Positions 40,196-62,757 of a stretch of DNA of 64,000 bases are shown here, one piece after another. The position numbers were made by a program, and so were the translations under genes. The first letter of the stretch is position 1. Each line of letters starts with the position of its first letter. The stretch covers positions 29,210-93,209 of the forward strand of contig PLYC01000013.1 of the NCBI GenBank assembly GCA_003151625.1, read 5' to 3'. Origin of the DNA: Candidatus Doudnabacteria bacterium (GTDB lineage Bacteria; Patescibacteriota; Doudnabacteria; UBA920). Below the pieces are notes generated by a model, which was not told the origin of the DNA, did not search any database, and saw only the letters and a program-made list of their open reading frames with translations.

Positions 40196-40500
40196 GACCT
40201 TGCCCAGGGCTGTTTTTTGATTTAATATGTAGGCATAAACTAGTTGAACAGCTAGTTGAATGCGGGTTCAACCAGTAAAGCTGTTAAAGCCCTTAATTCC
40301 ATTATCTTTGTCCTAACCCGCCATCCCTGACTATCACCACGATTTCCACTATACGACAAAGAAATAATAATACTAAAAACCAATAACTACTTACTAATAC
40401 TAATCAATACTTAATACTAAATACTATACTCTAATCTAACTTAAATACTACCAACTAACCTAAAACACTGAAACAAATGGGGAAATGGGGGGGGTGGAGA
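40196..40500. repeat. left terminal inverted repeat (~300 bp)
   Basis: About 90 percent identical to the reverse complement of 62440-62757; contains internal palindrome GTTGAAtgcgggTTCAAC, TACTAA-rich iterons and an inner poly-G. Confidence 0.7.
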
Positions 40501-40760
40501 ACAAAAGGCAAAAAAATCAGAAGTGTGGGGGCAAGAGAGGCAAAAATGTAACTAATAAGGCAAATCTTGTATACTTAACTTATATGAATCTTGTCTGGCT
40601 TTTCCTGATTTACATTTTAATAGGGCTGGTTATGGTGCTATGGGATTTCCGTCCTAATAATACTCTACACGACCCGCCACGCTTTATCCAAGACCGTAGC
40701 ATTAGCACGGCCACAATGTTTATATTGCTTTGGCCTTATAAGCTGTTAAGAAAGTTGTAA
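40485..40760 (+). CDS. small membrane protein
   Basis: 91-aa ORF starting in the poly-G at the TIR inner edge; one TM helix. Confidence 0.35.
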   Translation: MGGVENKRQKNQKCGGKRGKNVTNKANLVYLTYMNLVWLFLIYILIGLVMVLWDFRPNNTLHDPPRFIQDRSISTATMFILLWPYKLLRKL

Positions 40761-40860
40761 TTTCGTCCTATCCCCGGCTCTATAAATAGGAGCTGGGGGT
40801 TTTTGTTATTGAACCTAAAAAGTGTTAAAATAAAGGAAATCTTTAAATACTACTAATAAG

Positions 40861-43800
40861 ATGGCTTCCGATTCAACGTCAATAACAAATGAAGGTCAGA
40901 ACACGCTCTCGGCGGCGTTAAAGGATATTTTGCCAAATTGTGACAGAGTTGACGCGCTCGTCGGGTATTTTTATTTTTCTGGTTTTCGGGATCTGCATAA
41001 AGAACTTCAGAGCAAAAAGATCCGAATTCTCGTAGGTATGGATATAGATAGGAAAATGATAGAAAAGATTTCTACTTTGAAGGATGCCAATCTTGACTCT
41101 TATCTCACGGATTCAAAAATTTCGTCGCGGGCAGGCGTAAAAGAAAATTATTTTGAGATTTTTTCTCGTGTTTTTAACGATACTGATTATTTTGATGATA
41201 CAGAAGCCCAAGAAGCTTTTAAGAGTTTTTTGGAGAAAATCAAAGACGGAAGTTTGGAAATTAAGAAGTCGGCTAAAGCGAATCATTCGAAGTATTATAT
41301 CTTGCACAATAAACCAGAGCTTTCAGCGAATGGCAGAACGCCAGGCGTTATTGTCACAGGTTCGAGCAACCTAACACTATCAGGGCTTAAGGGGCAAGGA
41401 GAAAATAATATAATCTTGCAGGAAAAGCATTACTACGATGACCACTTCAAACGATTTGAGGAACAATGGAATGATCCAGAAAATATCGGGATTGCAGATA
41501 TAAATTCTGCTGATGAATTTATACAAGAAGTAAAACAGAGGGTTTGGCTTTATGCCCTACCGAAACCTCTCCATATGTTTTATAGGGTTCTTGATGAGTA
41601 TTTTTCAGTAGACGATGTGGAAGATAGAAAGTCACCAGAAGAAATTACTTCCGGTAAATTCTATAACTTAAAATATCAACGGGATGCAATAAATTTAGGA
41701 ATTGACAGAATTGAGAAATTCGGAGGAGTTATTATTGCGGATGTTGTAGGCCTAGGTAAAAGCATTGTCGCATCAGCCATTGCTCATAATCTTAATTTGC
41801 AGACAGTTATTATTGCCCCTCCACACCTTGAAAGTCAGTGGAAAGATTATATGTCTGATTTCGACTTCAAGGGTCAGGTGTATTCAACTGGAAAAATTAA
41901 AGAAGCACTTGAGCGACACGGAAGCGAGGGTGGAAAGTTATTGATAATTTTAGATGAAGCTCACAAGCATAGAAACGAAGATACTGATAATTATATTCTG
42001 CTTCATAAACTTTGCGCGGGCAATCGAGTTATGGCTCTTTCCGCTACTCCTTTTAACAATGACCCAAGGGACATTTATGCCCTTATAAAATTGTTCAGCA
42101 CTCCCGGTCAATCCACTTTAAAAACTGTGGAAAATTTAAGTATGTCATTTCATCAGCTTTTCAAAAGTTATCGTGCGTTAAGAAGGAGTATGCGCCAGAG
42201 CGGGAAGAAGCAAGATGAAAGCGGTGTTGAGGAAATAACCAAGCGCAGTCAAGAAATCGCAAATGAATTACGGAAGATGATTGAACCACTGGTCATTCGC
42301 CGTTCAAGGTTGGATTTGGACGAGATTGAGGTTTATAGAAAAGATTTGAAAGAGCAAAATATTTCGTTTCCAAAAGTTAAAGACCCGGAATTACTTGAAT
42401 ATAAACTAGGCGAAATATCTGATCTGTATATAAGTACGTTAGAAAAAATTGCATCTGATGAGGAGCGAGCAAGTTTTCTCGGCACAAGATATAAATCTGC
42501 TAATTATATTCGACCGGGTTCGGATTTCTTTACGAAACTCATTGAGCAGGAAGAAACAACTGATGGCGAGTCACCCCAAGAGACTATTCAAAGAATGCAG
42601 CAGGCGCAAGTTAACATAGCCAAATTTATGCGGCGTCTACTAGTGAGGAGATTTGAAAGTTCCATAGCCTCTTTCAAAATCTCACTAAATAACATGATCA
42701 CCTCGTCCGAGCTTATGTTGGACTGGTATCTAAATCGCGGCGAAGTGCCAATCTATAAAAAAGGAGATCTTCCTGACACTACCGATCTTGAAGATATGGA
42801 GCCATCTGAAGCAGAAGCGGCGCTTAATAAGCTAGAGGGCAAAGGACTTATCCTTATTCCAAAAGCTGAAATTGATCCACGTTTTGAAGAACACCTGCGA
42901 CACGATATAGAGTTACTAAAAGGTATTTTGGCAAATTGGGATGGTGTAACAGCAGACCCAAAGTATGAATTCTTTGTTAAGAAAGTTACAGAATCTCTAG
43001 CGAAAGAAAATAAACGAAAGCTTGTTGTATTTACCGAATTTTCGGATACTGCGGATTATATATATGAAAAATTAAAGGCTGATGGTTTGCAACGAATTTT
43101 TAAATACACCTCGGGCGATGCTTCGGAAGCAAACAGAAAAACAATTAAAGCCAACTTTGACGCAAGTTTAGATTTATCAAAACAATCTAATGATTTTGAT
43201 ATTATAGTAGCAACGGATGCAATTTCTGAAGGGTTTAATTTGCATCGAGCAGGGACGGTTATAAATTATGATATTCCCTATAATCCTACACGAGTAATTC
43301 AGCGTGTCGGGCGCATTAATCGTATTAGTCAAAAAGTATTTGACGAACTTTTCATTTGGAACTTCTTCCCTACTCCGACGGGAGAATTTGAGACACATAC
43401 ACGGGCTATTTCTACATTAAAAATGAATATGATTCATTCGCTCCTTGGTGAAGATACGAGGATATTTACTAGCGACGAGGAGTTGAAAAATTATTTTGCA
43501 AAACAGTATACGGAAGAAAATAAAAAATTTGATGGGTCCTCATGGGATGCAAAATACAGGAATATCTGGCTGAATATAAAAGGCAATAAAAAAGTTATGG
43601 ACGAAATTGCCAAGATACCGCGTCGGTCGAGAATTGCTAGGAAATCATTAAAAAATGGTGTTGTCGCATTCGCAAAGAACGGCGGTAGTTATGTTTTCGC
43701 TTATGGAAACACAGCAGAAGATGTGATGGTTATTTCTCCCGAAATTGCCCTACCATTATTTGAAGCTAGTGAGGTCGACAAAGCAGAGGAAACGACAACC

Positions 43801-44163
43801 AGCTTTGAGCCAATATACCAGGTCGCTAAAGATCATATATTTAAGAATAATACTCACGCTTCTGTTACCGGCGGGCGTAAACAAGATGCGCTAGGTAAAT
43901 TAAAAGTGTTATCTGAAATGTATCAACCTGCAAAAGATTTATGTTTAGATGCTATCAAAACCATAAAAGACTTGGATGCTCTTCCGAACGGTATTCTAAA
44001 AGAAATCGCGGAATTATATTTAGATAAGGCAAACCTTGCCAAATCCTATACTATTCTCAAAGAGATGCTACCGCCAAAGTACCTTGAGGATATTTTTACA
44101 ACAGCGAAAAGAGCCGAGGAAACGGCTCGGCTGATTGTGTTGTCTGAAGAGTTAATTGCATGA
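40861..44163 (+). CDS. PLD-like nuclease domain fused to SNF2-family helicase
   Basis: N-terminal HKD-like motif NHSKYYILHN...VIVTGSSNLTLSG; helicase motifs I GLGKS, II ILDEAHKHRN, III LSATPFNN and VI QRVGRINRISQ; ATGA overlap with the next gene. Confidence 0.8.
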   Translation: MASDSTSITNEGQNTLSAALKDILPNCDRVDALVGYFYFSGFRDLHKELQSKKIRILVGMDIDRKMIEKISTLKDANLDSYLTDSKISSRAGVKENYFEIFSRVFNDTDYFDDTEAQEAFKSFLEKIKDGSLEIKKSAKANHSKYYILHNKPELSANGRTPGVIVTGSSNLTLSGLKGQGENNIILQEKHYYDDHFKRFEEQWNDPENIGIADINSADEFIQEVKQRVWLYALPKPLHMFYRVLDEYFSVDDVEDRKSPEEITSGKFYNLKYQRDAINLGIDRIEKFGGVIIADVVGLGKSIVASAIAHNLNLQTVIIAPPHLESQWKDYMSDFDFKGQVYSTGKIKEALERHGSEGGKLLIILDEAHKHRNEDTDNYILLHKLCAGNRVMALSATPFNNDPRDIYALIKLFSTPGQSTLKTVENLSMSFHQLFKSYRALRRSMRQSGKKQDESGVEEITKRSQEIANELRKMIEPLVIRRSRLDLDEIEVYRKDLKEQNISFPKVKDPELLEYKLGEISDLYISTLEKIASDEERASFLGTRYKSANYIRPGSDFFTKLIEQEETTDGESPQETIQRMQQAQVNIAKFMRRLLVRRFESSIASFKISLNNMITSSELMLDWYLNRGEVPIYKKGDLPDTTDLEDMEPSEAEAALNKLEGKGLILIPKAEIDPRFEEHLRHDIELLKGILANWDGVTADPKYEFFVKKVTESLAKENKRKLVVFTEFSDTADYIYEKLKADGLQRIFKYTSGDASEANRKTIKANFDASLDLSKQSNDFDIIVATDAISEGFNLHRAGTVINYDIPYNPTRVIQRVGRINRISQKVFDELFIWNFFPTPTGEFETHTRAISTLKMNMIHSLLGEDTRIFTSDEELKNYFAKQYTEENKKFDGSSWDAKYRNIWLNIKGNKKVMDEIAKIPRRSRIARKSLKNGVVAFAKNGGSYVFAYGNTAEDVMVISPEIALPLFEASEVDKAEETTTSFEPIYQVAKDHIFKNNTHASVTGGRKQDALGKLKVLSEMYQPAKDLCLDAIKTIKDLDALPNGILKEIAELYLDKANLAKSYTILKEMLPPKYLEDIFTTAKRAEETARLIVLSEELIA

Positions 44164-47100
44164 TGAAATTTAATGAAAAATATAACCATGAGAGCTTCCT
44201 TGATTTTTTGAACAATTTTCTCCCTGAAGATTTTTTAGAAAAAGAAGAAGACATTGTTATAAACAAAGAAAGATATAAGGAAATAGCCAAAGCTAAAATA
44301 TTGGGTTTTTCAGAGTGTTTAGATTTATATGTTTTAGAAATGGATCACTCCCGGGAAAATGATCCCAGAATTGCTATTGCAACGGACGCTTTTAAAATAC
44401 TTGCTGACCATTGGATACACAGAGCCCTTGTAGTATTTAAAAATAAAGAATCAGAGAATTATAGACTTTCCTATTTAACCATTTCTCTCGATTTAAATGA
44501 TAAAAATAAAGCTGTAAAAAGATACTCAAATGCTCGTAGATACTCTTTTTATCTTGGCCCTAATGCTAAAATAAACACCCCGACGAAGTTTCTTATTAGC
44601 AAAGGTAAAGTTACTGACTTTGACGATCTGAAAAGTAGATTTTCTATTGAGGTTGTTAATAAAGAATTTTACAAAGAAATATCCCAAGCATTTACTAAAC
44701 TTATTGATGGATTACTTAAGCTCCCTTCGAATGAAGATAAAAATCAGACTAGCATAGAATTTGCGGTTCGTTTAATTGGCAGGATCATCTTTTGCTGGTT
44801 CTTACGCGAAAAAAAAAGCCAAACTGGGTCAGCTTTGATGCCGAAAGAACTATTGTCTCTGTCTGCTGTCCAGGAAAACAGCGACTATTATCACAGGATT
44901 CTTGAACCTATTTTTTTTGAAGTTCTCAATAAGCCTGTTAAATCCAGAATAGATGGTTTTGCCAAGGAGCCTTTTTCCTATGTGCCTTATTTGAATGGTG
45001 GTTTATTTTCACCTCAAGATAACGATTATTACAAACGCATTAATAGCGCTTTTCAATCGCAATATCAAAATAATTTAGTAATTCCTGACGATTGGCTTAA
45101 AGACTTTTTTGAAATCCTTGAGACTTATAATTTCACAATAGACGAAAATACTAGCTTTGATGAAGAACTTTCCATCGATCCGGAGATGCTTGGAAGAATT
45201 TTTGAAAACCTTCTTGCAGAAATAAACCCGGAAACAGGAGAATCTGCGCGTCAAAGTACGGGTAGTTTCTATACACCGAGGACAATTGTAGATTATATGA
45301 TTGACGAAAGTTTGATGCTGTACCTAAAAAATCTAACACAGATTGAAGATAAAAAGCTAAAAGCTATTGTAAGTTATGATTTGAATGATGATGCGGCTAA
45401 TCCACTCAATCTTGATGAGAAGCAAAAAATTGTTGATGCCCTCGAGAGAGTAAAGATACTTGATCCAGCTTGTGGTTCGGGAGCTTTTCCCATAGGTGCT
45501 CTTCAAAAAATAGTTTTCATTCTCCAGCAGGTAGATCCTGATGGGCAAATGTGGTTTACAAAACAAATTCAGAATACATCCCCAGAAATAAAAAGGGTAA
45601 TAGAGCGCGAATTTGCTCATAAGAATTTTGATTATATTAGAAAACTTGGAATTATAAGAGAAAATATCTACGGTATTGATATTCAGTCAATCGCTATAGA
45701 GATATCTCGGCTAAGATGTTTTTTAACCTTAGTTGTCGACGAACGTATACAGGAGGACTTAGATAATAGAGGAATTGAGCCTTTACCAAATTTGGATTTT
45801 AAGTTTGTGGTCTCTAATACTCTTTTTGGTCTTCCAGGATCAGAGTCCTTAAGTCAATCTGAACTGTTCGAAGATGATGCTGGAATACAAGAATTAAAAG
45901 GGCTTAGGGACTTGTTCTTTAATGCTTCTGGGGTTGAACGAGATCAATTACAGCTTAAATTTGTCCAAGCTCAAAATAGAATGTTTCAACGTCTTATTAG
46001 TGAAGGCAGGAGGGGTTTGGGTCAATTAACCACTCAATTAACCACATGGGATCCATTTAGTCACAATCTTTCATCGTGGTTTGATTCTGAATGGATGTTC
46101 GGGATAAAGGACGGCTTTGATATTGTGATTGCTAACCCACCCTACGTATCGACAAAAGGAGTTGAAGAAAATTCAAAAGAACAACTTGAAAATAAATATG
46201 GTTTTGCAGATGACCTGTATTCCCATTTTTATTTTAGAGGTTTTGAACTATGCAAAGGCGGAGGCTTTCTTTCTTATATAACTAGTAAGACCTTCTGGGT
46301 CATTCAAACAAAAAAGAACCTTCGTGAATTATTGCTTAAAAATAATATTATTGATATTTATGATACCGCTAATCCGTTTGAAAGTGTGATGGTAGATACT
46401 TGTGTAGTTCTGGCTCAGAAAGAGAATAGGCAGGAAAATAAAATTAACTTCTTGAAAGCAGATAATGATTATTCGAATCCGATTCGGCTGGAAGTAGATA
46501 AGTCAATTTATGAAAATGCTGTAAATACAGTTATTTTTAGTCCGTCTCATGAAAATCTTGTGATATATCATAAATACAATACTGCAGTGAGTGAACTGAT
46601 GAAAAAATGGTGGCCATTAATCAATACGAGTAAAAATATTACAAAATATGGCACACAGCTAACAAAATACAGAGATAATTTAAAATCAGGAGAGGTTACA
46701 CTTTTAGGGTTAATTACAGATGGTGGACAAGGTCTCGCAACTGCAAACAATGGTAAATATGTTGGCGTGCTTTCCAGCACAAAGGAAGCAGTAAAAATAG
46801 AGGAAGCACGTATTAAGAAGTTTTTTGAATTTGTTACTCAGCGAACAATTAGTGAATATGGAACTAGTAAAGAATCTATTCGGGCAAATTTAAATAAATT
46901 ATCAGAGCAACAACTTCGGGCACTTTTTGATACATTGAAAGATAAATATGGGCAAGATCTTTTCGGAAAAGGATTCCTGTACCGCATCGTTGATTCTAGA
47001 GAGATAAAGAATATAGATAAAATGACTGACAATGAAAAAGAAGACGGCCTAGTTGGTGATCAATCATTTGTACCGTATGATAAAGGAGACAAGGAAGGCA

Positions 47101-47666
47101 ATCGATGGTATGTCCGTACGCCATATTATATTGATTGGAATAAGGTTAATGTAAGTTTTTTAAAAGAAAATACTGGTAAGAAAGGTAAAAATATGCCTGT
47201 TTTTCGAAATCCACAATTTTATTTTAAGGATGGATTCTCGTGGAATCTTATTAACGGGACCAGAACGACTAATGAACTTAAATTTACAATTACGGCACCT
47301 GCCGTAAATGATATGGCCTCGAATAAATTAACTTCCTTACTAGATAATGTATCTAACAAATACATCGCCACTGTTTGTAATTCTAGGTTTATAAACACAT
47401 ACACCGAAAATTTTATAAATTTTACATTAAATTTTCCTCATAATAGCACTCGTCAGGTACCCATAATTATTCCTACTGAAAAACAACTTGTCGACTTTGA
47501 AGATCTGTTTGACCGTGCCTATGCTATAAAAGTTAACCAGTTCGACGGAAAAATTACCGAGACTGCCGCAGGTCTAAAACTTCAAGAAATCCAAGAAGAA
47601 TTAGATGAAAAAGTGTTAAAACTTTATGGCCTCACGTCCGAGGAGGTAGAGATTGTAAAAAATTAA
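44160..47666 (+). CDS. N6-adenine DNA methyltransferase, Eco57I/PglX-like (1168 aa)
   Basis: Motif I LDPACGSGAF; motif IV IANPPYVS; large N- and C-terminal extensions. Confidence 0.8.
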   Translation: MMKFNEKYNHESFLDFLNNFLPEDFLEKEEDIVINKERYKEIAKAKILGFSECLDLYVLEMDHSRENDPRIAIATDAFKILADHWIHRALVVFKNKESENYRLSYLTISLDLNDKNKAVKRYSNARRYSFYLGPNAKINTPTKFLISKGKVTDFDDLKSRFSIEVVNKEFYKEISQAFTKLIDGLLKLPSNEDKNQTSIEFAVRLIGRIIFCWFLREKKSQTGSALMPKELLSLSAVQENSDYYHRILEPIFFEVLNKPVKSRIDGFAKEPFSYVPYLNGGLFSPQDNDYYKRINSAFQSQYQNNLVIPDDWLKDFFEILETYNFTIDENTSFDEELSIDPEMLGRIFENLLAEINPETGESARQSTGSFYTPRTIVDYMIDESLMLYLKNLTQIEDKKLKAIVSYDLNDDAANPLNLDEKQKIVDALERVKILDPACGSGAFPIGALQKIVFILQQVDPDGQMWFTKQIQNTSPEIKRVIEREFAHKNFDYIRKLGIIRENIYGIDIQSIAIEISRLRCFLTLVVDERIQEDLDNRGIEPLPNLDFKFVVSNTLFGLPGSESLSQSELFEDDAGIQELKGLRDLFFNASGVERDQLQLKFVQAQNRMFQRLISEGRRGLGQLTTQLTTWDPFSHNLSSWFDSEWMFGIKDGFDIVIANPPYVSTKGVEENSKEQLENKYGFADDLYSHFYFRGFELCKGGGFLSYITSKTFWVIQTKKNLRELLLKNNIIDIYDTANPFESVMVDTCVVLAQKENRQENKINFLKADNDYSNPIRLEVDKSIYENAVNTVIFSPSHENLVIYHKYNTAVSELMKKWWPLINTSKNITKYGTQLTKYRDNLKSGEVTLLGLITDGGQGLATANNGKYVGVLSSTKEAVKIEEARIKKFFEFVTQRTISEYGTSKESIRANLNKLSEQQLRALFDTLKDKYGQDLFGKGFLYRIVDSREIKNIDKMTDNEKEDGLVGDQSFVPYDKGDKEGNRWYVRTPYYIDWNKVNVSFLKENTGKKGKNMPVFRNPQFYFKDGFSWNLINGTRTTNELKFTITAPAVNDMASNKLTSLLDNVSNKYIATVCNSRFINTYTENFINFTLNFPHNSTRQVPIIIPTEKQLVDFEDLFDRAYAIKVNQFDGKITETAAGLKLQEIQEELDEKVLKLYGLTSEEVEIVKN

Positions 47667-49120: not shown

Positions 49121-49168
49121 AAGACTTTGATTCCATTTTAATTTATGTTTATTTCTTTTTGCAACCAA

Positions 49169-49369
49169 CTATTTCTGCCTGTTATAAGGTGACTGATTTG
49201 TTGGGTGAAGCGAGAAACCCAATTCAGAAGCTTTGGAATATACTGCTTCCGGCGTGCGCCCTAGTTTTAGAGCAATAACCCTTGTTGGTGTGTTCTCTTT
49301 TGCCATAGTTTTTAAGTTTCTCTCGTCTTGTTGTTCCCATTGCTTTCCAAAATTTTTTGGCCAAGTCAT
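49169..49369 (-). CDS. small putative HTH regulator, divergent from LexA-like gene
   Basis: 66 aa; TRVIALKLGRTPEAVYSKASELG HTH-like segment. Confidence 0.4.
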   Translation of the reverse strand: MTWPKNFGKQWEQQDERNLKTMAKENTPTRVIALKLGRTPEAVYSKASELGFSLHPTNQSPYNRQK

Positions 49370-53434: not shown

Positions 53435-53450
53435 ATTTTAACACTTCCAC

Positions 53451-53540: not shown

Positions 53541-53661
53541 GCCCGTCAAGGGTAAAACCTCTTTATCTGCCGTAAGCCATAAATCGGTTTTAATCCCGTT
53601 GACCGCCAAAACATTCCAGAGTTTTTTTGCTTGCCATAATAAGTAAGCAAAAAGGAGTTTT
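53541..53661 (+). promoter_or_regulatory. conserved ~120-bp leader (copy 1) upstream of RadC-like gene
   Basis: Shares GTCAAGGGTAAAACC...GGTTTTAATCCCGTTGAC.GCC...CCATAATAA.TAAGCAAA.AAAGGAG with 56121-56242. Confidence 0.45.
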
Positions 53662-54144
53662 ATGGAATATCAAGTAAATATTAGCTACCAGTTTAAAGCT
53701 GATAGCGACAACGAAGCTAACGAAAAAGCCAAAAGCTATATTAGCCAGAATTTGCAGGTTAAAGCTATTAAGGACGGCGTTTACAGCCCTTTGGAAATAG
53801 CCTCAAAGTGCAAGAATTTCAGGAAAGCTAAAAAAGAACACTTTTGCGTCTTTTTCCTGGATACCCAAAACAGGATTCTTGGCAAAGAAACCGTCAGCAT
53901 TGGCACATTAAACACAAGCCTGATTCATCCCAGGGAGTGTTTTAGGACTGCTATATTAAAAAATTCTGCTTCTGTAATTTTCGTCCACAATCATCCAAGC
54001 GGGGGTTTAGAGCCGTCAGCGGAAGATCTTAATGTTACCAAGCGGTTAAAAGATGCCGGGAAACTCCTTGGCATAGAAGTTTTAGACCACGTGATTGTAA
54101 CAACTGATTCTCACACCAGTTTGAAGGAACGACATTTATTATAA
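53662..54144 (+). CDS. RadC-like JAB domain protein (short form)
   Basis: HNHPSGGLEPSAEDLNVTKRL; paralog of the C-terminal half of 33717-34381. Confidence 0.8.
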   Translation: MEYQVNISYQFKADSDNEANEKAKSYISQNLQVKAIKDGVYSPLEIASKCKNFRKAKKEHFCVFFLDTQNRILGKETVSIGTLNTSLIHPRECFRTAILKNSASVIFVHNHPSGGLEPSAEDLNVTKRLKDAGKLLGIEVLDHVIVTTDSHTSLKERHLL

Positions 54145-54263
54145 AAATTAAAACCCATCCAAATCATGAAATAAAGAAAAACGTCAGCGCCCGAAGGTGC
54201 TGACGTGCTCGGCTGACGAGCGTGAATGCGTGTTGTATTGGTTTGAACTTTGCCGTTCCGGAT

Positions 54264-54845
54264 CTACGCCGGAAATATTTCCGCTTGCACCGTAATCCAG
54301 TCACTGCCCCTGCTGTCGTCGGCCTCCCGCGTAACCATGGCGGCGACACGCCCCTTCCCCTGGAAGTTGTACTGGACGTAATGGAGGAGCTTCCCTCCGA
54401 ATTCCGGCTGGGCAAACCGAACGCGCATGGCGTGGATTTTGTGGCCTTCGTCGCCTTCCTGCAATATCGCCTCCACATCGACGATTTGCTTGAAGTGACG
54501 GGGGTGATATGTGCCGTGCTGGTCTGCTGTGATGTAGATCCATGCGTTGAAGAGCTTGCGAATGGCAGCAAAGTAGTCGACCGAAGTCGAGCTTTCATAG
54601 TTGTAAGCTGCCATCGCGTTGTCCAAAATCTCCGTGAGTTTCATTGCATCTTCCTCCTCAGGAATTGTAGGGATTTTTAACCCTTCCAAAGTCACAAAAT
54701 AATTTATGAGCTTAGAAGAATGTCCGAGTTTAACCTCTCGGACGTAGGTCTTATGGTTTGTACCACGTTCCAGCACTGCCTGCTGGTTGGTTTTATGAAT
54801 GTTGACTACTTCGTGACGGGCTCGATGGTCAGCCTGCAAAGCCAC
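54264..54845 (-). CDS. hypothetical protein (GC-rich cargo)
   Basis: 193-aa ORF chosen among overlapping frames; uncertain. Confidence 0.3.
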   Translation of the reverse strand: MALQADHRARHEVVNIHKTNQQAVLERGTNHKTYVREVKLGHSSKLINYFVTLEGLKIPTIPEEEDAMKLTEILDNAMAAYNYESSTSVDYFAAIRKLFNAWIYITADQHGTYHPRHFKQIVDVEAILQEGDEGHKIHAMRVRFAQPEFGGKLLHYVQYNFQGKGRVAAMVTREADDSRGSDWITVQAEIFPA

Positions 54846-55897
54846 TGCCGCAGATCGGCGACGGCTTTGAGTTGCCAGCGTTCCTCGTCGGTCGAACTCT
54901 GTTCCTTGGGCCGGATATGGCCGCCGGAAATCTCCAGAAAGGCGCCCTTTTCATCGGGCATTTGAAGAATCGTCCGCTCGATGATCCGTTCGACTTCCTC
55001 GCCGGACGGAACTTTCTGTCCGCCCCACGCAGCGCCGCTGTATGCCTGAAAACTGACATGGCCGCTGTTCCTTAGCCTTACGAACACCCTACCATCTACA
55101 GCTTCCGGATCGAAGTCGGGCCGCCGCAGGCAGAGTTTGAACTCCATGCGACGTGCGACGTCATCGTAGTGATTGAAGACGAGCGGATTCCACTTCGGTT
55201 CCCACCGCATCATGGACAACTCGTTCAAGCTGTCCTCGTAGAGCCAGAGTAAGTTCGTGTCTCCAGTGACCTTGAGCGCTTCCGTCAGCATGTAATACCT
55301 CGTGGCCATTTTGCCGACGGTAAAGGCGAATCGCGATCTCTCGGAGCAGTCGATCAAGTGGTCGCGCATCATCTGGCTGTGGAAGTTGCCGCTCTTGGCT
55401 TCTTCGTTGAGCTTGCGCAGCGCTTTGGCGACGATTTCGGTTTGCCCACTGCGTTCCACCCACACTTGCCGTAACGCTTCGGCATACTTGGGATTCCACC
55501 AGTCCGCCATCTGAAGCAGCATGTCGAACTCCCAAGGGTCGTGGTCCATCCAGTGATAGACCTCGTCCTGCTGGGGAACCGAAGCCTTGGTTGCAGGCAT
55601 CGAATACGGGGGAGAAAACTTCTCCTGCCATAAGATACCGGCAATTTCAGCCCCTTTCTTGTATTCGCAGTTGGCGGCCGCGAGAATGGCTTGGACGATA
55701 AGGGAACGCGGTTTGCTATCAACTGTCGCAGCGACCAGTTCGTCCAAAGTGAATTTATGACCGGCAGAACAAACTATGCTTCCGTCGATCATGAGAGTGG
55801 ACCCGCAGCGCTTGCCGCGAGTGCGGCCAGCGAGGCCACATTTCATCTTCCCGTCCTCGACGTAAAACCGTTGACGGGTTGCAGATGTTTCCAACAT
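54806..55897 (-). CDS. hypothetical protein (GC-rich cargo, 363 aa)
   Basis: Longest ORF in the GC-rich patch 54.2-55.9 kb. Confidence 0.45.
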   Translation of the reverse strand: MLETSATRQRFYVEDGKMKCGLAGRTRGKRCGSTLMIDGSIVCSAGHKFTLDELVAATVDSKPRSLIVQAILAAANCEYKKGAEIAGILWQEKFSPPYSMPATKASVPQQDEVYHWMDHDPWEFDMLLQMADWWNPKYAEALRQVWVERSGQTEIVAKALRKLNEEAKSGNFHSQMMRDHLIDCSERSRFAFTVGKMATRYYMLTEALKVTGDTNLLWLYEDSLNELSMMRWEPKWNPLVFNHYDDVARRMEFKLCLRRPDFDPEAVDGRVFVRLRNSGHVSFQAYSGAAWGGQKVPSGEEVERIIERTILQMPDEKGAFLEISGGHIRPKEQSSTDEERWQLKAVADLRQWLCRLTIEPVTK

Positions 55898-56120
55898 TCA
55901 GAACCTCCTGTTTCGTTGTATTTCACTCCTGTTTGCACAGTGAGTGTCCCAGATTAAGGGAAAATTGAGCAGAAAACTAGAAATTTCCACGCACTTTTCC
56001 CCTAACATTGGAACTTACTATTTTACTGTTTTTATTATGTTTTGTCAAAGCCCAAAAATACACCAAATGTACTTTTCCTTTGCTTTCTTATGGCTTTCCA
56101 TTTTACTGACCGTTTACGGC

Positions 56121-56242
56121 CGGTCAAGGGTAAAACCAATTTATTTCCCGTAGGGCATAAAAAGGTTTTAATCCCGTTGACTGCCATAACCTGCGGCCAG
56201 TTCTCCGGAGTCCATAATAATTAAGCAAAGAAAGGAGTTAAT
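56121..56242 (+). promoter_or_regulatory. conserved ~120-bp leader (copy 2)
   Basis: See 53541-53661; precedes RBS AAAGGAG and ATG 56243. Confidence 0.45.
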
Positions 56243-56443
56243 ATGCCCAAGTTTCAAAAACAGGCAGTTAGCACCAAGCAGGGTTTAACGCCGGAGATGA
56301 AGTCAAATATCATCAAAGCGTCCTTGCAGAGAAGTATCAACTACTACTTAGAGTTGAGAAACTCCGTAGACCCTAAGAGCAGCGACTATCACGATTTCGG
56401 AAAGAAAGTTTCCGCGTATATCGCTGTTAAGCAACAGCTTTAA
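56243..56443 (+). CDS. small hypothetical protein (66 aa)
   Basis: Strong RBS; conserved leader upstream. Confidence 0.45.
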   Translation: MPKFQKQAVSTKQGLTPEMKSNIIKASLQRSINYYLELRNSVDPKSSDYHDFGKKVSAYIAVKQQL

Positions 56444-56510
56444 ACAAACACAAAAACCCAAACAAAAACAAAAACAAAAATTCTTTCTTTAAATCATTAA
56501 ACTAACACCA

Positions 56511-56672
56511 ATGCCAAAAGCATACACCGTTTACTTTCAATACTTAATCACCTGCCCCTGCTGCCAAAATTGCTGGAGCGCCAACAGGCAGGAAATCATA
56601 GACCTGGACACCGTTACCTGTCCATCTTGCGGTTCCTGCAACTTAAACATTCAGAAGTATTTTGAAGTCTAA
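56511..56672 (+). CDS. small Cys-rich zinc-ribbon protein (53 aa)
   Basis: Manual ORF MPKAYTVYFQYLITCPCCQNC...CPSCGSC; followed by terminator 56689-56716; below the ORF-track size cutoff. Confidence 0.35.
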   Translation: MPKAYTVYFQYLITCPCCQNCWSANRQEIIDLDTVTCPSCGSCNLNIQKYFEV

Positions 56673-56688
56673 ACCCAAAACAAGATTA

Positions 56689-56716
56689 AGCCACTCTGAA
56701 AAGGGTGGCTTTTTCT
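56689..56716 (+). terminator. rho-independent terminator
   Basis: AGCCACTC tgaaaag GGTGGCT then TTTTCT; near-duplicate at 57589-57625. Confidence 0.6.
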
Positions 56717-56801
56717 ATGTTCAATAATAAAGCTTTTTTACACTAGCCCCTTCTTGCTTAAATAAGTCAACTCTGCTATTGTATCGTAAATAAGAGGAAC
56801 T

Positions 56802-57368
56802 ATGTCCTTAGCTGATCAGCAAAATCGGGCCAAAGATGCCCGCATTACCTTTACTCCGCTTAGGCAGGGACGGTACCGTTGCAACTGGAACGGTGCTGTT
56901 ATAACGCATGGCGCAGTCCATGCCGCCCGCAACCGCCGCTGGAGCGAATTGCATCCGCACGTAGAGATGCCCGCTCCGGCTCCCAAACCGCTCATCACCA
57001 CATACGTTGGACCGCCGCCACAGCCCAAGCCTACACTCAAAGAGGTTGTGGCCGACTCCACCGGTTACATCCGGTGCCCCAACTCATCTTACGGGTCGCT
57101 CTGCGGATCCTACAAGTTCGTCGGATACGCAGCTACCGGCGAGTATACCTGCAATAGCTGCTCCAAGCCGTTTCTCGTCGTTACAGCCGCCACTCAATCG
57201 GCGGCGAACCAACTCCGTGAAGCGGAAGCCATCAACGCCTACGGCGACGTGAACTGTCCCAACTGCCGCGGGATAAACACCGATGCGGTGCATGGAAACA
57301 AGCCCATGGAAGTCACGTGCGAGTATTGCCACCAGAAATTCCTCGCAAAACCGCGCACCGCCGTGTGA
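56802..57368 (+). CDS. Cys-rich hypothetical protein (GC-rich)
   Basis: 188 aa with several CxxC pairs (CNSCSK, CPNCRG, CEYCHQ). Confidence 0.45.
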   Translation: MSLADQQNRAKDARITFTPLRQGRYRCNWNGAVITHGAVHAARNRRWSELHPHVEMPAPAPKPLITTYVGPPPQPKPTLKEVVADSTGYIRCPNSSYGSLCGSYKFVGYAATGEYTCNSCSKPFLVVTAATQSAANQLREAEAINAYGDVNCPNCRGINTDAVHGNKPMEVTCEYCHQKFLAKPRTAV

Positions 57369-57768
57369 CCCACGCCTCCTGGCACTGTAACCAACGTAAT
57401 TGATCTGCTATAACCCAACCGGCGACTTTCCCCCCTGAAGGAAAGTCGCCGCTGTTGTTTTATTATTGTTCAGTATAAATTTTTTTAAAATAGTCGAAGA
57501 TATTTTTATTTTTGCAAAAGTATTTCTGCAACATTGACTTTAGAAATTAACAAATCAGTAGTATTTTAAAACCAATACCCAAAACTAGATAAAGCCACTC
57601 CGCAAGGAATGGCTATTTCCATGAGCCATAATTGCCTAAATGTTGGTTTTTTTTCAAAATTTAATAGTAAGAGGCATTGACCCCAAAAAGAATTTCTGCT
57701 AAAATTTTGCCACCAGACATGCCATATGTTATATGTGTCTGACTACAATGTAAAGGAGATTAACGCCA

Positions 57769-58083
57769 ATGGCAGGGCAACCGCAGGCTTACACTTTGCC
57801 CAAAGGGTATATCGTCAAAAACTTCGATGGTCGCTTTCTGACCCGGAGCATGAACTGGGCGCGCCACCATGGAAAACCGGATCGTGCATTCGTCCACCCG
57901 AAGGAATTGCTACTCGGGACGCAGGATTGGATGTCTGATGCCGACCAAGTCTACCTGGCACAATATAACCCCGTGCATGACCATACGGAGGTTGTCGGAA
58001 ACGAGCCTCTCTCGTTCGAGAAGTTCGCCGCCTACATCAACTCCAATATCCCGTTGCCGGAGCAATTCAGGACAATCGTATGA
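57769..58083 (+). CDS. hypothetical protein (GC-rich)
   Basis: 104-aa ORF. Confidence 0.4.
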   Translation: MAGQPQAYTLPKGYIVKNFDGRFLTRSMNWARHHGKPDRAFVHPKELLLGTQDWMSDADQVYLAQYNPVHDHTEVVGNEPLSFEKFAAYINSNIPLPEQFRTIV

Positions 58084-58484
58084 CACCGACAACGCCGCAA
58101 GCTTGGCAGAGCCAACTGCCGCGCATCAATGTAAACAGGCGAGGCGAGACGGACAAGATGAGGGTCTTGGCCCGTTTCAAGCACCAAGCCACGAACACCT
58201 ACTTCTACGTCTTGCAGGGCGACTCTTGCAAGAACTTCTGGCTTTACTGGGGATTTGCCGTAGTGTCAGGGCGCCAGTTCCCGATTCAGGTCACCGTCTC
58301 CTCACACGATTTGGAGTCGGGAGTCTGGCTCGGCGGCGTACCGTGCGAAGTGGACACCAGCTTCCAGTCGGGCCAGTGGGTGGAATTCAAGAATCTTCAT
58401 TTTCCACCTTCAGGGCCTCTTGCTGGTGGACGGATGAATGACCGCGGAAGCGGAAAACTCACGCACCCGCACGTCTTGCAGTAG
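58080..58484 (+). CDS. hypothetical protein (GC-rich)
   Basis: 134-aa ORF overlapping the previous stop (ATGA). Confidence 0.4.
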   Translation: MTPTTPQAWQSQLPRINVNRRGETDKMRVLARFKHQATNTYFYVLQGDSCKNFWLYWGFAVVSGRQFPIQVTVSSHDLESGVWLGGVPCEVDTSFQSGQWVEFKNLHFPPSGPLAGGRMNDRGSGKLTHPHVLQ

Positions 58485-58700
58485 CACAGATGGCGCATTG
58501 GCAACAATAACCGCTTTGCAACTCGCATTTTGAGTTGCCGCTGAAACACAAAAGTCGGTAAAGAAAGATTTTAGAAGACACCAAATCTAAATCACTTTAC
58601 CGACTTTTTTAATTACTATTTATCTCTGTAAAAGTATTTCTGCAATGTTGGCCTGCTGATTGCTGTTTATGCACAAACATATTTGGCAGAATTTGACAAC

Positions 58701-59582: not shown

Positions 59583-59615
59583 ACAGTTTGAATTAAGGGA
59601 ATTTTATTACAAAAA

Positions 59616-62372
59616 TTAAACTGATTCCGACTGGATGTCTCCCCTATCCGGCGCGGCAGCAGTCTTTTTTTTGTTCATGGCTTTGTTAAATTGCTCTTCG
59701 TTGTCGCTTGAGTAATATATGGAGTTTACAGCAGTGCGCTCCCAAACAATATCGTCTTGGGGTGTGCCGTATTTGTCCATAGCCTGGGATATGTAATAGT
59801 CTTCGGTTTCTTTGGCGTTGTCCGTGTGATGTTCGGTTTTTTGGATGTTTATGGACATAGCGTCCTGCGGCACGCCCTTAACCAGGGTTTTAATGTATGC
59901 CGTACCCGTGGGCAGATTAATAATGTCCTCAACCAAAGCCTTGCCGCCTAAAATCTTTTCGGCGATCTCGGCGTCATCTACCGACTGGGTGCGCATAAAG
60001 ATTTTAGTGGCAATGTTGGATTCTATGGATTTTTGTATTCTTTGGTCCAACTGGCCCATAAATTGGTTACTAATAACTAATGCCGTGTTAAAAGCCCTGA
60101 CTTCGGAAAACAGAGTTTCAAAAATATCACTGGCCACCCTTTGGAATTCGTCTACTACAAAAACCGTCGGTTTTCTCTGCTCGCTAGCCAGTCTGGCTTG
60201 GCCAAAGATAGCCTCGGCAATATGAGCGGTTAGGTAGACAGAATAGTACTTTTTCATCTGTTCGCTGGAAGAGCCTAAATTGGCGATAAATATCTTGCCC
60301 GTGTTAATCATGTCCTCAAAAGATATTTTGGCTTCTTTTCGGTCTACAATATTCATAAACTCCGGGTAGTCCAGGAATTTGCCCAGCTTGTTGTTAGTGG
60401 TGGCCAAGTATTTGGCCAAGTCATTATTACTACGCTTTAAAATTGAGGTAGACCAAAAGTTTTGTAAGCGTGGGGGCAAATAGGCTATCAGTCTGCCAAT
60501 TTGCTCGGGCTGGTGAAGGAGCATGTCCAAACCGGACAGTGATTGTTCCGGCAAAATGTAGGCCGTGGCAAATAATTGCCTTAAGATGTTTTCCAGTTCC
60601 GGCCCCCAGGAGTAGGCGGAGTCAATTTGCACAAACCGTTTCATTATGGAGATTAAAAATTCCAGTTTTTCCTCGTCGGTTTTGCTGCCGGAAAACTTGG
60701 AAAAAAACGGAAAAGCCAAAGGCCTGTCTTTTTGCCTTTGGGGATTAAAGTAAATCACATCAGCTTTCCTGCTCTCGGGAATCATAGTTAATAAGTCCGT
60801 GGCAAAGTCGTTTTTGGGGTCGACAATCAACATGGCGGGTTTTTCGCCACCTTGTTTCTGTAAAAGACTGTGGAGAATAGTTTTTAGGGTTTCCGACTTT
60901 CCCGCTCCTGTGCCGCCTAAGATGTAGATGTGCTTTTTCATATCGTCCCAGGTGGCTATGCCGATGGGGGTTTCGTCTTGCATACGGAAGTTAGACTTCC
61001 CCAAGGACAGGAAAAAGTTGTCGGGATATCTTCTGATTTGCTGACTGGCAGGGAGTTTTTTAAAACGGGTAAGGTTAATGGAGGAAACAGTTTCCTCCTG
61101 GGTATTGGGCAAATGCCAAAAGGAGTAAAGCTCGCCGTCCGAAATCATCTGCCCGTAGTTTATGAATTTGGCAAAGGGCCACAGTAAAAATCGTCTTAAG
61201 CGGAGCACCGGCTTGGCGGCAACTATATCTGTCAGCCAGCCATTTTTCTCTAGATTGTCCACCTGTTTCGTAAATAGCAGCCTGTGCTTTAAGGTATTCA
61301 TATTTTTTTGGTTCAGTTCGGCCAGTGTACCCTGGATACTGCGGAGTTTGGCCTTTGACTCCTGGGGGTTGTCTGCTACGGTCCAGTAGGAAACTATTGT
61401 CTGAAACAGCGGGGCTTTCATTTTTTCAATCATGGCGCTGTTCAAGGAATTGGCCAGTTCCGAACCGGCTCCCCACTTTTGGATGGCAAATTTTTTGTCG
61501 CTTTGGTTTACGGCCCCTTGCTGTTCCTGCTCCTCAATGAGATAGTGGATTATTTGGTTAAAATAATGGGAGGAGGGAGAAACCAGGACATTGTAAACCA
61601 TAAATTGGCCTTTCTTCAGGCCTTCCATAACTGAGATAATGGAATCTACGGGGTCGCTGGAAACGTCTTTAAAAGTTTTAACTCTATGGAAAAACTTGCC
61701 TTCTATGGTAGTTTCCCCATAACTTAAAAACCCTTGTGGAAACTCTGTAAGTTCCTCAAGGGCTTTATCTTTGTCCAGCATTGTTATTTCCGCGCTTGGG
61801 TAGGCGTTAAAAATGGCCTTTTCCACGCGCTCAAAGTCCTTGCCCGGCACCTGGAGCCTAAAGGAGATAAAGGGGTGCTGGGCCCAGATTTGCATGCTGA
61901 AAAATATCTGTCTGGAACGCTTAACCTTCCAGATCCGCCACAGCTTTTGGAAGAAGTAGATAAAGCCAAATGTGCTGGAAAAATTATGCGCGCCCTCCAC
62001 CGGGTCAATGTATATGGCGTGGAAGGCTTTAAGGATTTTTTGCTGGATTTGAAAAGCCGTGGCTTGGGAGTTTTTGGGGATGGTAATTTCAAAATACAGG
62101 CTGGTGTCCAGCCATGCTTCCAAATCTTTTTTCTTTAGCTTTATCTTTTCAAAAGAGTGGCGGTTAAAGCCCGGAAGTTTGTCAAAAACGAACATGAAGA
62201 ACAAAATCGTAATGCCTATCCAGCCAGCGATATTTTCCCAAAACGGCATTCGGCTGAAATAGTAAGTCCACATGATTTGGCCCATAGTCATCGGGCCGTG
62301 AGGCGTGGTAAAGACATGTTGAAAGACATCAGTTGTGGCTGGATGAGATACAATATGATGTACTACTGCCAT
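59616..62372 (-). CDS. conjugation/T4SS-type P-loop ATPase (VirD4/TraG/TcpA-like coupling protein or VirB4-like)
   Basis: N-terminal TM helices; Walker A ILGGTGAGKSETLKT; Walker B TVFVVDEFQRV; 918 aa. Confidence 0.6.
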   Translation of the reverse strand: MAVVHHIVSHPATTDVFQHVFTTPHGPMTMGQIMWTYYFSRMPFWENIAGWIGITILFFMFVFDKLPGFNRHSFEKIKLKKKDLEAWLDTSLYFEITIPKNSQATAFQIQQKILKAFHAIYIDPVEGAHNFSSTFGFIYFFQKLWRIWKVKRSRQIFFSMQIWAQHPFISFRLQVPGKDFERVEKAIFNAYPSAEITMLDKDKALEELTEFPQGFLSYGETTIEGKFFHRVKTFKDVSSDPVDSIISVMEGLKKGQFMVYNVLVSPSSHYFNQIIHYLIEEQEQQGAVNQSDKKFAIQKWGAGSELANSLNSAMIEKMKAPLFQTIVSYWTVADNPQESKAKLRSIQGTLAELNQKNMNTLKHRLLFTKQVDNLEKNGWLTDIVAAKPVLRLRRFLLWPFAKFINYGQMISDGELYSFWHLPNTQEETVSSINLTRFKKLPASQQIRRYPDNFFLSLGKSNFRMQDETPIGIATWDDMKKHIYILGGTGAGKSETLKTILHSLLQKQGGEKPAMLIVDPKNDFATDLLTMIPESRKADVIYFNPQRQKDRPLAFPFFSKFSGSKTDEEKLEFLISIMKRFVQIDSAYSWGPELENILRQLFATAYILPEQSLSGLDMLLHQPEQIGRLIAYLPPRLQNFWSTSILKRSNNDLAKYLATTNNKLGKFLDYPEFMNIVDRKEAKISFEDMINTGKIFIANLGSSSEQMKKYYSVYLTAHIAEAIFGQARLASEQRKPTVFVVDEFQRVASDIFETLFSEVRAFNTALVISNQFMGQLDQRIQKSIESNIATKIFMRTQSVDDAEIAEKILGGKALVEDIINLPTGTAYIKTLVKGVPQDAMSINIQKTEHHTDNAKETEDYYISQAMDKYGTPQDDIVWERTAVNSIYYSSDNEEQFNKAMNKKKTAAAPDRGDIQSESV

Positions 62373-62439
62373 AATACAGATTTAATTTTTAATCCACTCC
62401 CCCACCCCGCCGCTTCGCGGCGGGAAACTTTCTTCCACC

Positions 62440-62757
62440 CCCCCCCATTTCCCCATTTGTTTCAGTGTTTTAGGTTAGTTGGTAGTATTTAAGTTAGATT
62501 AGAGTTAGTTAGTATTTAGTTTAAGTATAGATATTAGTAGTTATTGGTTTTTAGTATTATTATTTCTTTGTCGTATAGTGGGAATCGTGGTGATAGTCAG
62601 GGATTATGGGTTAGGACAGAGGCAATGGAATTAGTGACTTTAACAGCTTTACTTGTTGAACCCGGATTCAACTAGCTGTTCAACTAGTTTATGCTCTCAT
62701 TTTAAATCAAAAAATAGCCTTGGGCAAGTTCAGGCTGTGGCCAAGATTGTGGCCAAG
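62440..62757. repeat. right terminal inverted repeat (~300 bp)
   Basis: Reverse complement aligns to 40196-40500 at about 90 percent, including poly-G, TACTAA iterons and the GTTGAA/TTCAAC palindrome. Confidence 0.7.

Follow-up and report, generated by a model that had tools for sequence, protein, structure and literature searches.

The subject of this analysis is a mobile element carried by a stretch of 64 000 nt of Candidatus Doudnabacteria DNA (hereafter the window). A sequence-only reading of this stretch had described a 22.6-kb segment, positions 40196–62757, with genes for conjugation-type DNA processing lying between two inverted repeats (IRs) of ∼300 bp and ∼90% identity. A repeat search of the 64-kb window recovered the IR as two inverted matches, one of 198 nt between 40194–40391 and 62536–62733 (90% complementarity) and one of 67 nt between 40428–40494 and 62439–62505 (100%). 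Overall, 40194–40494 matches the reverse complement of 62439–62733. Alignment with MAFFT joined the two blocks into a single repeat that is split by an indel-rich low-complexity stretch; weaker similarity extends outward to TAGTGGAGTGC, which is common to both copies at ∼40145 and ∼62811. The repeat search found no other IRs of at least 60 nt in the whole window, and a 29-mer and a 28-mer taken from the repeat each occur exactly twice in it, where shuffled sequences lead to an expectation of zero.

We refer to the outward-extended copies as REPEAT L and REPEAT R. They are only ∼80% identical when their outer block (B1, see below) is counted, and identical over the inner 67 nt. Both point inward and each lies directly upstream of an inward-facing operon. 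REPEAT L precedes genes for a 58-aa membrane protein, a PLD + SNF2 helicase and a type IIG/PglX-like methyltransferase, and REPEAT R precedes genes for a TraG-like ATPase and then a 293-aa protein. The main features of the segment and its right-hand flank are as follows, where ‘att’ denotes attachment-site features and L-numbers are locus labels of relatives.

40147–40496, plus strand: REPEAT L, the outward-extended left IR; attL-type junction (TAG followed by TGGAG), then B1; upstream of the cargo operon
40584–40760, plus strand: 58-aa predicted membrane protein; first gene past REPEAT L
40861–44163, plus strand: PLD + SNF2 helicase (DrmD-like/HKD+Snf2), defence cargo (Pfam/PADLOC)
44160–47666, plus strand: type IIG/PglX-like N6-adenine methyltransferase (Eco57I family), defence cargo
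49525–50193, plus strand: LexA-like S24 peptidase repressor
50207–51256, plus strand: MBL-fold protein; PADLOC candidate PDC-M48B, E = 4e-81
53662–54144, plus strand: RadC-like JAB protein; backbone gene that adjoins the relaxase gene in relatives
54164–58700, no strand: mostly GC-richer insertions relative to L003 and L014
58701–59582, minus strand: MOBC-class (Replic_Relax, PF13814) relaxase-like protein, 293 aa
59616–62372, minus strand: VirD4/TraG-like coupling ATPase (TrwB/TraG-D_C/DUF87), 918 aa
62439–62808, minus strand: REPEAT R, the outward-extended right IR; inward, upstream of the TraG–relaxase operon
62809–62950, minus strand: arm2, a copy of the 3′ end of a large serine recombinase gene; upstream of REPEAT R
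62989–63867, minus strand: 292-aa secreted or membrane protein, in a variable slot between arm2 and the next gene
63888–64000, minus strand: C-terminal 36 codons of an XRE-type helix-turn-helix (HTH) protein, cut off by the window end

Gene content was checked by Pfam, PADLOC and PHROGs. Profile matches bear out the SNF2 helicase and methyltransferase, the LexA-like, MBL-fold and RadC proteins and the 918-aa TraG-type ATPase that had been named from the sequence alone; a small HTH gene named with them (49169–49369) matched no family. The ATPase has a single N-terminal hydrophobic segment and a Walker A motif, GGTGAGKS, at residue 486. The cargo comprises a DISARM/BREX-like helicase and methylase, the PDC-M48B MBL protein and the LexA-like repressor. 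Within the insertion-rich region 54164–58700, the small genes at 56072–56760 belong to the conserved backbone; the distance between the RadC and relaxase genes is ∼100 bp or less in L003 and L014 (23 bp in L014). The RadC gene and the adjacent insert are flanked by a direct repeat, 53541–53612 and 56119–56190 (64–72 nt, 85% identical in the window), which has a counterpart in a sister element (L010, 11233–11296 and 12611–12674) and no match in Rfam.

The 293-aa protein had been called Replic_Relax-like. It has no Pfam match itself at E ≤ 0.01; the assignment holds through phrog_9381 (‘replication initiation by nicking’, E = 1.4e-8) and through homologues at 48–78% identity that carry PF13814. 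Patescibacteria have many such homologues, two of which bear the name ‘replication-relaxation family protein’. The protein has an N-terminal winged HTH and a PD-(D/E)XK-type domain, the catalytic motif of which (PD..ExE..K) is present as the invariant residues P166-D167, E184, E186 and K190. PF13814 has been equated with MobC (PMC5357655) and placed in the PD-(D/E)XK superfamily (PMC3424549).

The sequence-only reading had found no recombinase. For 40196–62757 this is correct: 17 larger open reading frames (ORFs) and two 66-aa ORFs were scanned, and none encoded a recombinase domain; a 91-aa ORF of this interval includes the 58-aa membrane protein. The absence holds for that interval only. No transposase domain was found in the scanned ORFs of the window, nor any protein-primed polymerase, terminal protein or telomere resolvase. 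In tblastn searches of the window with VirB4, PrgI, the M23 peptidase and the products of neighbouring genes, all taken from the type IV secretion system (T4SS) region of the relative L009, no match was obtained. The window lacks mating-pore genes, and the element it carries is therefore at most mobilizable, i.e. a mobilizable or decayed derivative of full conjugative relatives. These relatives are L009, L022–L025 and L026–L027, in which T4SS genes (pilin, VirB6-sized protein, PrgI, VirB4 and M23 peptidase) follow directly after the relaxase gene.

Architecture and specificity of the repeat

The blocks of the repeat were defined by alignment of 14 copies. Their positions in the window are listed below.

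40147–40185, plus strand: block B1 (TGGAGTGCCCATACAACGAGGTGCGAAC...), tRNA T-arm-like; conserved across the 14 copies
40200–40228, plus strand: promoter-like TTGCCC-17-TAATAT
40240–40275, plus strand: core, with CTAGTTGAA(C/T) twice in direct orientation and once inverted, as GTTCAACCAG
40327–40360, plus strand: block B4 (CTGACTA..N..ACTATACGACAAA), the non-coding block with the widest conservation; candidate nic region
40361–40496, plus strand: G-less, A/T/C-rich low-complexity tract ending in the G-run GGGGAAATGGGGGGGG
Within REPEAT R, minus strand: promoter-like TTGCCC-17-TAAAAT at 62727–62699; core at 62655–62687; B4 at 62567–62600; G-run at 62439–62467
62406–62424, minus strand: GC hairpin CCCGCCGC-GAA-GCGGCGGG between the G-run and the TraG start; in TraG-side copies only

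The G-run GGGGAAATGGGGGGGG and the GTTGAA....TTCAAC palindrome that had been noticed in the repeat were both found. The TACTAA-type iterons were found only in part: the A/T/C-rich tract exists, but it is G-less low-complexity sequence with indels between copies and contains no regular iteron array. Across copies, this tract is 100–200 nt long and is followed by the G-run.

In the Doudnabacteria clade the promoter-like motif has the form TTGCCC-17-TA(A/T)AAT. Its hexamers and 17-nt spacing are also seen in the right copy of the window and in L003, L010, L012 and L017, and L015 keeps both though its spacer sequence differs. Block B4 follows the pattern CTGACTA...ACTGAACGACAAAG over the 14 copies. 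B1 and B4 are kept even in elements where TraG is only 46% identical and the promoter motif is missing.

The core contains two or three direct copies and one inverted copy of a 10-nt site. This half-site differs by lineage (CTAGTTGAAC, CTGTATGAAC and CTAGTAGTAC), with the direct and inverted copies changing in concert: 90.7% of the cells in the core alignment are paired, four of the 10 pairs have changed on both sides, and no slid register comes near this value. The core type does not track the XRE-HTH protein, as L015 combines an L010-like HTH with an L012-type core, and the recognition helix of the relaxase is nearly invariant despite the lineage-specific core site. Folding of the putative leader as RNA gave z = −0.15 against shuffled sequences, i.e. 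no significant structure, and a structured RNA leader was rejected. Rfam searches at gathering and permissive thresholds, which covered the repeats and the surroundings of RadC, matched no known RNA family.

The repeat has the position and architecture of an origin of transfer (oriT), with B1, B4 and a covarying core of direct and inverted repeats. TraX, the prototype MOBC relaxase of pAD1, binds direct repeats 70–120 bp from nic (PMC12857230). Given this mode of binding and the MOBC class of the 293-aa protein, we infer that the REPEAT is a candidate oriT, and from its position and architecture that it is also the promoter region of the two operons.

Occurrence of the repeat in unrelated contexts had been named in the sequence-only reading as a refuting outcome. 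In a scan of one genome per species, core matches were confined to one element family. A 21-mer from the repeat core matched Patescibacteria/Doudnabacteria contigs only, with two exceptions, L002 and L007, which are contigs of metagenome-assembled genomes labelled Gammaproteobacteria; five metagenome contigs also matched. Wherever downstream sequence is present, the core sits upstream of a TraG-like gene or operon, and L003 is 85% identical to the window over REPEAT, TraG and relaxase. A query of the PLSDB plasmid collection with the repeat gave no match. In IMG/VR, the repeat core gave a single chance match within a phage coding region (L008) and the relaxase profile found no relative. By these comparisons the repeat is specific to one element family and not generic to the genomes.

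Relatives, attachment junctions and the tRNA target

Four LSR-bearing loci (LSR, large serine recombinase) make up all of the relatives with enough flank to compare: L010 and L012, two elements within one 699-kb Doudnabacteria contig; L015, from an 868-kb contig; and L022, of 64 kb. All four share a backbone with the order LSR (minus), XRE-HTH (plus), variable gene, arm2, REPEAT, TraG and PF13814 gene. The LSR, of 508–556 aa with Resolvase, Recombinase and Zn_ribbon_recom domains, lies directly past the divergent XRE-HTH gene. The variable slot is empty in L010 and is occupied by a HAD-family gene in L012 and by one of 323 aa in L015. In L010 and L015 the PF13814 gene is followed by RadC on the opposite strand. 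On the 699-kb contig, two inverted REPEAT copies lie 12 kb apart, both inward-facing; a second inward-facing REPEAT was found upstream of cargo in L010 (368 nt, 99% identity) and in L012 (∼380 nt, 93–97%).

The window matches this backbone from the HTH inward. On its minus strand, the final 111 bases code for the C-terminal part of an XRE-HTH protein (E = 8e-7 against that of L015), and 62809–62950 encodes the last ∼50 LSR codons in the direction of TraG (tblastn with the LSRs of L010, L012 and L015, E = 1e-9 to 3e-12). Because the window ends within the HTH gene, the LSR lies beyond this gene in four of four relatives, and arm2 is present in the window, the LSR of the window element is expected just past base 64000, where it most likely lies. 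The missing recombinase is then most likely an artefact of the window edge. A tblastn search of the left flank (38–40 kb) found no LSR remnant. The IRs are not, as had been supposed, the termini of the element: only the left copy stands at an end, and outward of the right copy the conserved DNA of the element goes on with the LSR 3′-end copy, the 292-aa gene and the XRE-HTH gene.

The relatives have a second IR, of 113–218 nt and 98–100% identical. One of its arms, arm1, is the 3′ end of the LSR gene itself and the other, arm2, is the fragment that lies upstream of REPEAT; the positions are:

L010: 4708–4820 and 6640–6752
L012: 4281–4393 and 6700–6812
L015: 3668–3780 and 6511–6623
L022: 4620–4837 and 6561–6778

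The arms bracket the LSR body and HTH, together with the variable gene where there is one; the window contains the second arm only. A flip of the bracketed segment would leave the LSR ORF intact, directly upstream of REPEAT–TraG; the orientation is the same in four of four assemblies. An 8-bp hairpin is found at 62845–62865, within the C-terminal coding region of the LSR, and also in L002, L010, L012, L015 and L022. Compensatory changes keep its stem (GGGCGGCC, GGGCTGCC, GGGCAGCC and GGGCTGCG), and a T-rich run comes after it when the strand antisense to the LSR is read, which makes it terminator-like.

The outer end of the LSR gene meets a tRNA gene. The LSR ORFs end antisense within complete genes for tRNA-Glu (L010), tRNA-Leu (L012) and tRNA-Lys (L015), with the arms starting 5 nt within the tRNA 3′ end; in L022 the arm adjoins sequence in which no tRNA was detected. 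In the junction alignment, arm1 and arm2 are the same up to TGGT(G/A) and then split, one continuing into the tRNA and the other into B1, which resembles a tRNA T-arm (..GCTCGAAC..). The junctions therefore show the features of serine recombinase att sites: identity up to a core, TGGT(G/A)/TGGAG, a switch of partner at this core, and half-sites that are alike. Such a pattern would arise if arm–B1 were an attP-type site and arm–tRNA a recombinant junction, and B1 is accordingly read as a putative P′ half of attP. In the window, the corresponding attL-type junction lies at ∼40147 and consists of ...AAATCCCCTAAAGGGGATTTTAG joined to TGGAGTGCCCATACAAC, i.e. a terminator joined to TGGAG-B1. The arm2–B1 junction at ∼62808 forms an unrecombined attP-type site.

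An empty site was found in a related genome. The methyltransferase at 37245–38012 of the window is a conserved Doudnabacteria chromosomal gene, and L029, a 949-kb contig, carries an 84% ortholog. On its far side the ortholog has the same neighbours as in the window (RadC, Phd and ParE), and on its near side, 265 bp away, there is an element-free tRNA-Thr(ggt) gene ending in GGCTCCA, followed by CTTCTTCGCCAAGGCTACGAAG. In L017, which has a 77% ortholog of the methyltransferase, the reverse complement of the L029 flank is joined at TGGAG to B1–REPEAT and the start of TraG, so that B1 replaces tRNA sequence exactly at TGGAG relative to the empty L029 site; the L003 flank is similar to that of L017. 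The empty site and the two junctions together point to insertion of this family at the CCA end of tRNA-Thr at the window locus, with the crossover probably in or next to TGGAG. The window keeps a matching trace of the target:

40123–40146, minus strand: chromosomal hairpin + T-run (AAATCCCCTTTAGGGGATTTTTT); matches the position of the flank downstream of tRNA-Thr in L029

This hairpin can be read as the terminator originally behind the target tRNA gene, and thus as the B side of attL. A match of 30046–30070 to the flanks of L003 and L017 was also considered as an att site and was rejected as a generic intergenic hairpin motif: the palindromes CTTCGCTAAAGCTACGGCGGGCA and CTTCGTAGCCTTGGCGAAG recur in intergenic DNA of several Doudnabacteria genomes (window 30046–30070; L003 2441–2466; L017 746–769; L029 7580–7610 and 7737–7760).

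At the same tRNA-Thr-side junction, REPEAT leads into TraG in L017 and L003 and into the cargo operon in the window. This comparison indicates that the long segment is inverted between genomes, possibly by a recombination flip between the repeats or by use of the other attP at integration. The suggestion that the segment is a large invertible one thus has some support, in that both orientations occur at one junction across genomes, but the opposite-orientation contigs are short-read assemblies. REPEAT copies are 99% (L010) and 97% (L012) identical within an element and 63–83% between elements, which is an independent indication of sequence exchange between the two copies.

Several further observations were made on the relatives. 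Beyond its far REPEAT, L010 has a second LSR gene (19142–20482; 446 aa), N-terminally truncated and without the catalytic-serine region, and beyond that of L012 there is an LSR 3′ remnant with a partial third REPEAT (19850–20183); these remnants suggest past tandem or rearranged copies. L012 also has a reverse transcriptase and bAvd, i.e. a diversity-generating retroelement, directly after the relaxase gene (10980–12397). The TraG-like gene of L015 (7197–9972) is broken into ORFs of 508 and 435 aa by a frameshift or a long-read assembly error. The contigs of L009, L023, L024 and L026, from four independent assemblies, start close to where REPEAT has its inner edge, 94–424 bp upstream of TraG; several copies of REPEAT in those samples too would lead to such starts.

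Elsewhere, the window consists of ordinary chromosomal DNA, with genes for AdoHcy hydrolase, a P-type ATPase, an ABC exporter, a sigma factor and tRNA-Tyr and for a RadC of full length beside Phd/ParE. A perfect sigma-70 consensus (TTGACA-17-TATAAT, 12/12) lies on the minus strand at 40116–40088, immediately beyond the left repeat, and is directed leftward into ORFs of 110 and 519 aa. The region 38015–39999, between the methyltransferase and the attL junction, contains an 81-aa ORF and the 519-aa ORF, which has a GC content of ∼0.50 and encodes a membrane protein without a family match; compared with the mere 265 bp between methyltransferase and tRNA in L029, it is a separate insertion or variable region. 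A probable defence island at 24687–28821 encodes a DUF2130 protein, a 464-aa Schlafen-type helicase fused to an S24 peptidase, a 299-aa protein of no known function and a MazG-like protein. A 64-nt intergenic element ending with a hairpin and T-run occurs three times (16186–16249, 31460–31523 and 36222–36285) and is probably a dispersed terminator or REP-like repeat.

Interpretation and alternatives

We find support for the earlier description of the locus as DNA of a mobile element that includes a conjugation-type DNA-processing module and lies between the arms of a genuine long IR. We consider it likely, at a probability of roughly 0.8, that this DNA belongs to a tRNA-inserted LSR element in a Patescibacteria (Candidatus Doudnabacteria-like) chromosome, and that the IRs are modules internal to it. 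What the comparisons above show directly is how the junctions are built, the synteny of the backbone, the empty site and the occurrence of both orientations. Movement in trans need not be invoked for integration or excision.

The element would span ∼40147 to ∼2 kb past the window end. From left to right it would consist of attL, REPEAT L leading rightward into the cargo, the relaxase and TraG genes read leftward from REPEAT R, arm2, the 292-aa gene and the XRE-HTH gene. Past the window there would follow a divergent LSR gene whose 3′ end (arm1) abuts an antisense tRNA-Thr. B1, at the outer edge of each REPEAT, would provide the P′ half of attP and the LSR 3′-end arm the P half. Use of one arm–B1 site for integration would have produced the flank–B1 junction at 40147 and an arm1–tRNA junction past the window, and would have left arm2–B1 intact. 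The excised circle would then hold two inverted units of arm and REPEAT, ∼0.5 kb in length and each with an attP, separating a short segment, U (LSR, HTH and variable gene), from a long segment, S (TraG to cargo). S would be flipped relative to the chromosome by recombination between the repeats or by integration through the other attP, and the former would also homogenise the two copies. The rest of REPEAT would most likely serve as promoter and leader for the two inward operons and as oriT for the MOBC relaxase.

A bolder version of this scheme, to which we would give rather less than even odds, is that the circle resembles the 2-micron plasmid in having two IRs of ∼0.5 kb, each combining an LSR attP, a MOBC oriT and a promoter; that it flip-flops between isomers; that it may integrate at tRNA 3′ ends via either attP and in either orientation; and that either strand may be transferred. 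If true, the two-attP/oriT circle would be a type of integrative conjugative element not reported so far and direct evidence of bona fide conjugative elements in Patescibacteria.

A number of points weigh against this explanation or parts of it. The LSR and tRNA of this particular element are outside the window, and their presence past 64000 is predicted from the relatives. The two-attP circle is a deduction, and no excised or circular form was seen. The right-hand B1 is a divergent variant, so the arm2–B1 attP may be inactive. The promoter and oriT roles of REPEAT are assigned from position and architecture only, and the promoter-like motif is missing from the more distant copies L001, L002, L004, L018 and L022. 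The contigs of L017 and L003 were assembled from short reads across a repeat, and the order flank–REPEAT–TraG may in them be an assembly choice. Finally, the extra LSR remnants beyond the far repeat in L010 and L012 are not predicted by the simple model.

The alternative that survives best, though we regard it as improbable, is a programmed site-specific inversion switch, Hin/Gin-like or catalysed by the LSR, that toggles which operon lies beside the HTH/LSR end. Such a switch would account for the occurrence of both TraG-to-cargo orientations at the same tRNA-Thr locus in different genomes, for the serine recombinase gene beside the repeat in relatives and for the second, perfect IR of 113–218 nt that brackets the LSR–HTH segment. 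However, the same upstream sequence is present on both repeats, so that a flip would bring no obvious change in expression, and 300–400 bp of homology suffices for RecA-type flipping. Moreover, TraG is on the LSR side in all four long assemblies and in the window, and the two opposite-orientation contigs come from short reads.

It is less probable still that the repeat is merely a duplicated promoter/operator region with no part in integration or transfer. The −35 and −10 hexamers with their conserved 17-nt spacing in the Doudnabacteria clade, the palindromic site just downstream and the position of each copy before an operon would all agree with a promoter, but B1 replaces tRNA sequence precisely at the att core, and B1 and B4 are conserved where TraG is 46% identical and the promoter motif is absent.

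Hardly any weight can be given to a transposon-like 22.6-kb unit in which the 300-bp terminal inverted repeats (TIRs) would be the sites of a transposase that is unrecognised or acts in trans. The long IR does bracket the segment exactly, and the ORFs scanned within the segment yielded no recombinase domain. Against this, target-site duplications were searched for at the repeat edges and not found; conserved element DNA continues outward of the right IR in the window and four relatives; the outer edge of the IR acts as a serine recombinase att half-site at tRNA 3′ ends; the repeats face inward as upstream regions of operons in every element; and in L003, L009 and L017 REPEAT adjoins TraG, with no second copy found in the part of the contig examined.

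Equally remote is an integrated linear plasmid or linear phage-like replicon with the repeats as telomeric TIRs, a reading for which the terminal-like IRs and plasmid-type genes would speak and that might also explain why many related contigs are 20–30 kb long and start at the inner edge of the repeat: such starts are the usual outcome of assembly at any repeat, none of 11 full-length contigs (three with TraG + relaxase) ends in matching inverted sequence, three assemblies have the repeats within contigs of chromosome length, the junctions are of the tRNA att type, and none of the linear-replicon domains named above occurs in the scanned ORFs.

Comparison with known systems

ICEs (integrative and conjugative elements) and IMEs (integrative and mobilizable elements) that use an LSR are known from monoderm bacteria, for example Tn5397 with TndX. 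Streptococcal IMEs carry relaxases of the Rel_PF13814/MobC type (PMC5357655). The family described here resembles both groups in having the LSR gene at one of its ends, a relaxase together with a coupling protein, an HTH/LexA-like regulator, accessory cargo and site-specific insertion. It differs in that the 3′ ends of several different tRNA genes are targeted, a choice of target typical of tyrosine integrases; in that the LSR ORF runs antisense into the tRNA; in having two inverted modules of attP half and upstream region; and in its host, Patescibacteria.

For pAD1, PMC12857230 describes a TraX with a winged HTH and a PD-(D/E)XK relaxase domain, encoded beside a TraG-like gene, which is also the arrangement seen here. 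The same paper, citing Francia et al. 2013, gives the pAD1 oriT as an inverted repeat plus short direct repeats that form a binding site tens of bp from nic, and the REPEAT core likewise combines direct and inverted repeats. There is no sequence similarity between the two, and the candidate oriT here differs in being inverted-duplicated and fused to an att half-site.

A survey of Patescibacteria T4SS reported MPF-FATA-like VirB4, PrgI, VirB6 and pilin genes, with MOBC as the commonest relaxase class, often near t4cp (PMC12102498). Most of the clusters have no relaxase and were read as probably not conjugative or repurposed, although the question was left open (PMC12102498). Unlike those clusters, the relatives examined here join LSR, att sites, type IV coupling protein, MOBC relaxase and T4SS in one tRNA-inserted unit; the window copy, unlike these relatives, has lost its T4SS genes and illustrates the decay of such elements into islands with defence genes.

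The predicted circle, with two long IRs, a short and a long unique segment and a site-specific recombinase gene, recalls the yeast 2-micron plasmid and other replicons of its design. In that plasmid, two long IRs flip two unique segments, a recombinase gene is carried and both isomers are observed. The recombinase here is by contrast a serine integrase with sites at the outer edges of the IRs, flipping would probably be homologous, and there is no sign of a role in amplification. Two functional oriTs were reportedly described on plasmid R6K by Avila and colleagues in 1996; the candidate oriTs here would similarly give two transfer-origin copies per replicon, in an unrelated relaxase class and context, so that the parallel is no more than a lead.

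The family makes conjugative DNA transfer in uncultivated, reduced-genome Patescibacteria directly testable, and if functional, the module may provide a compact pairing of integrase and att site directed at conserved tRNA ends. In a literature search of incomplete coverage, we found no description of an inverted arrangement of att half and oriT-like sequence. Serine integrases and MOBC relaxases have both been described in ICEs and IMEs before. What appears to be new is a tRNA-end target for an LSR whose own gene supplies, at its 3′ end, half of attP; the unusual inverted duplication of an att-half and oriT-like module; and a coherent ICE architecture in Patescibacteria.

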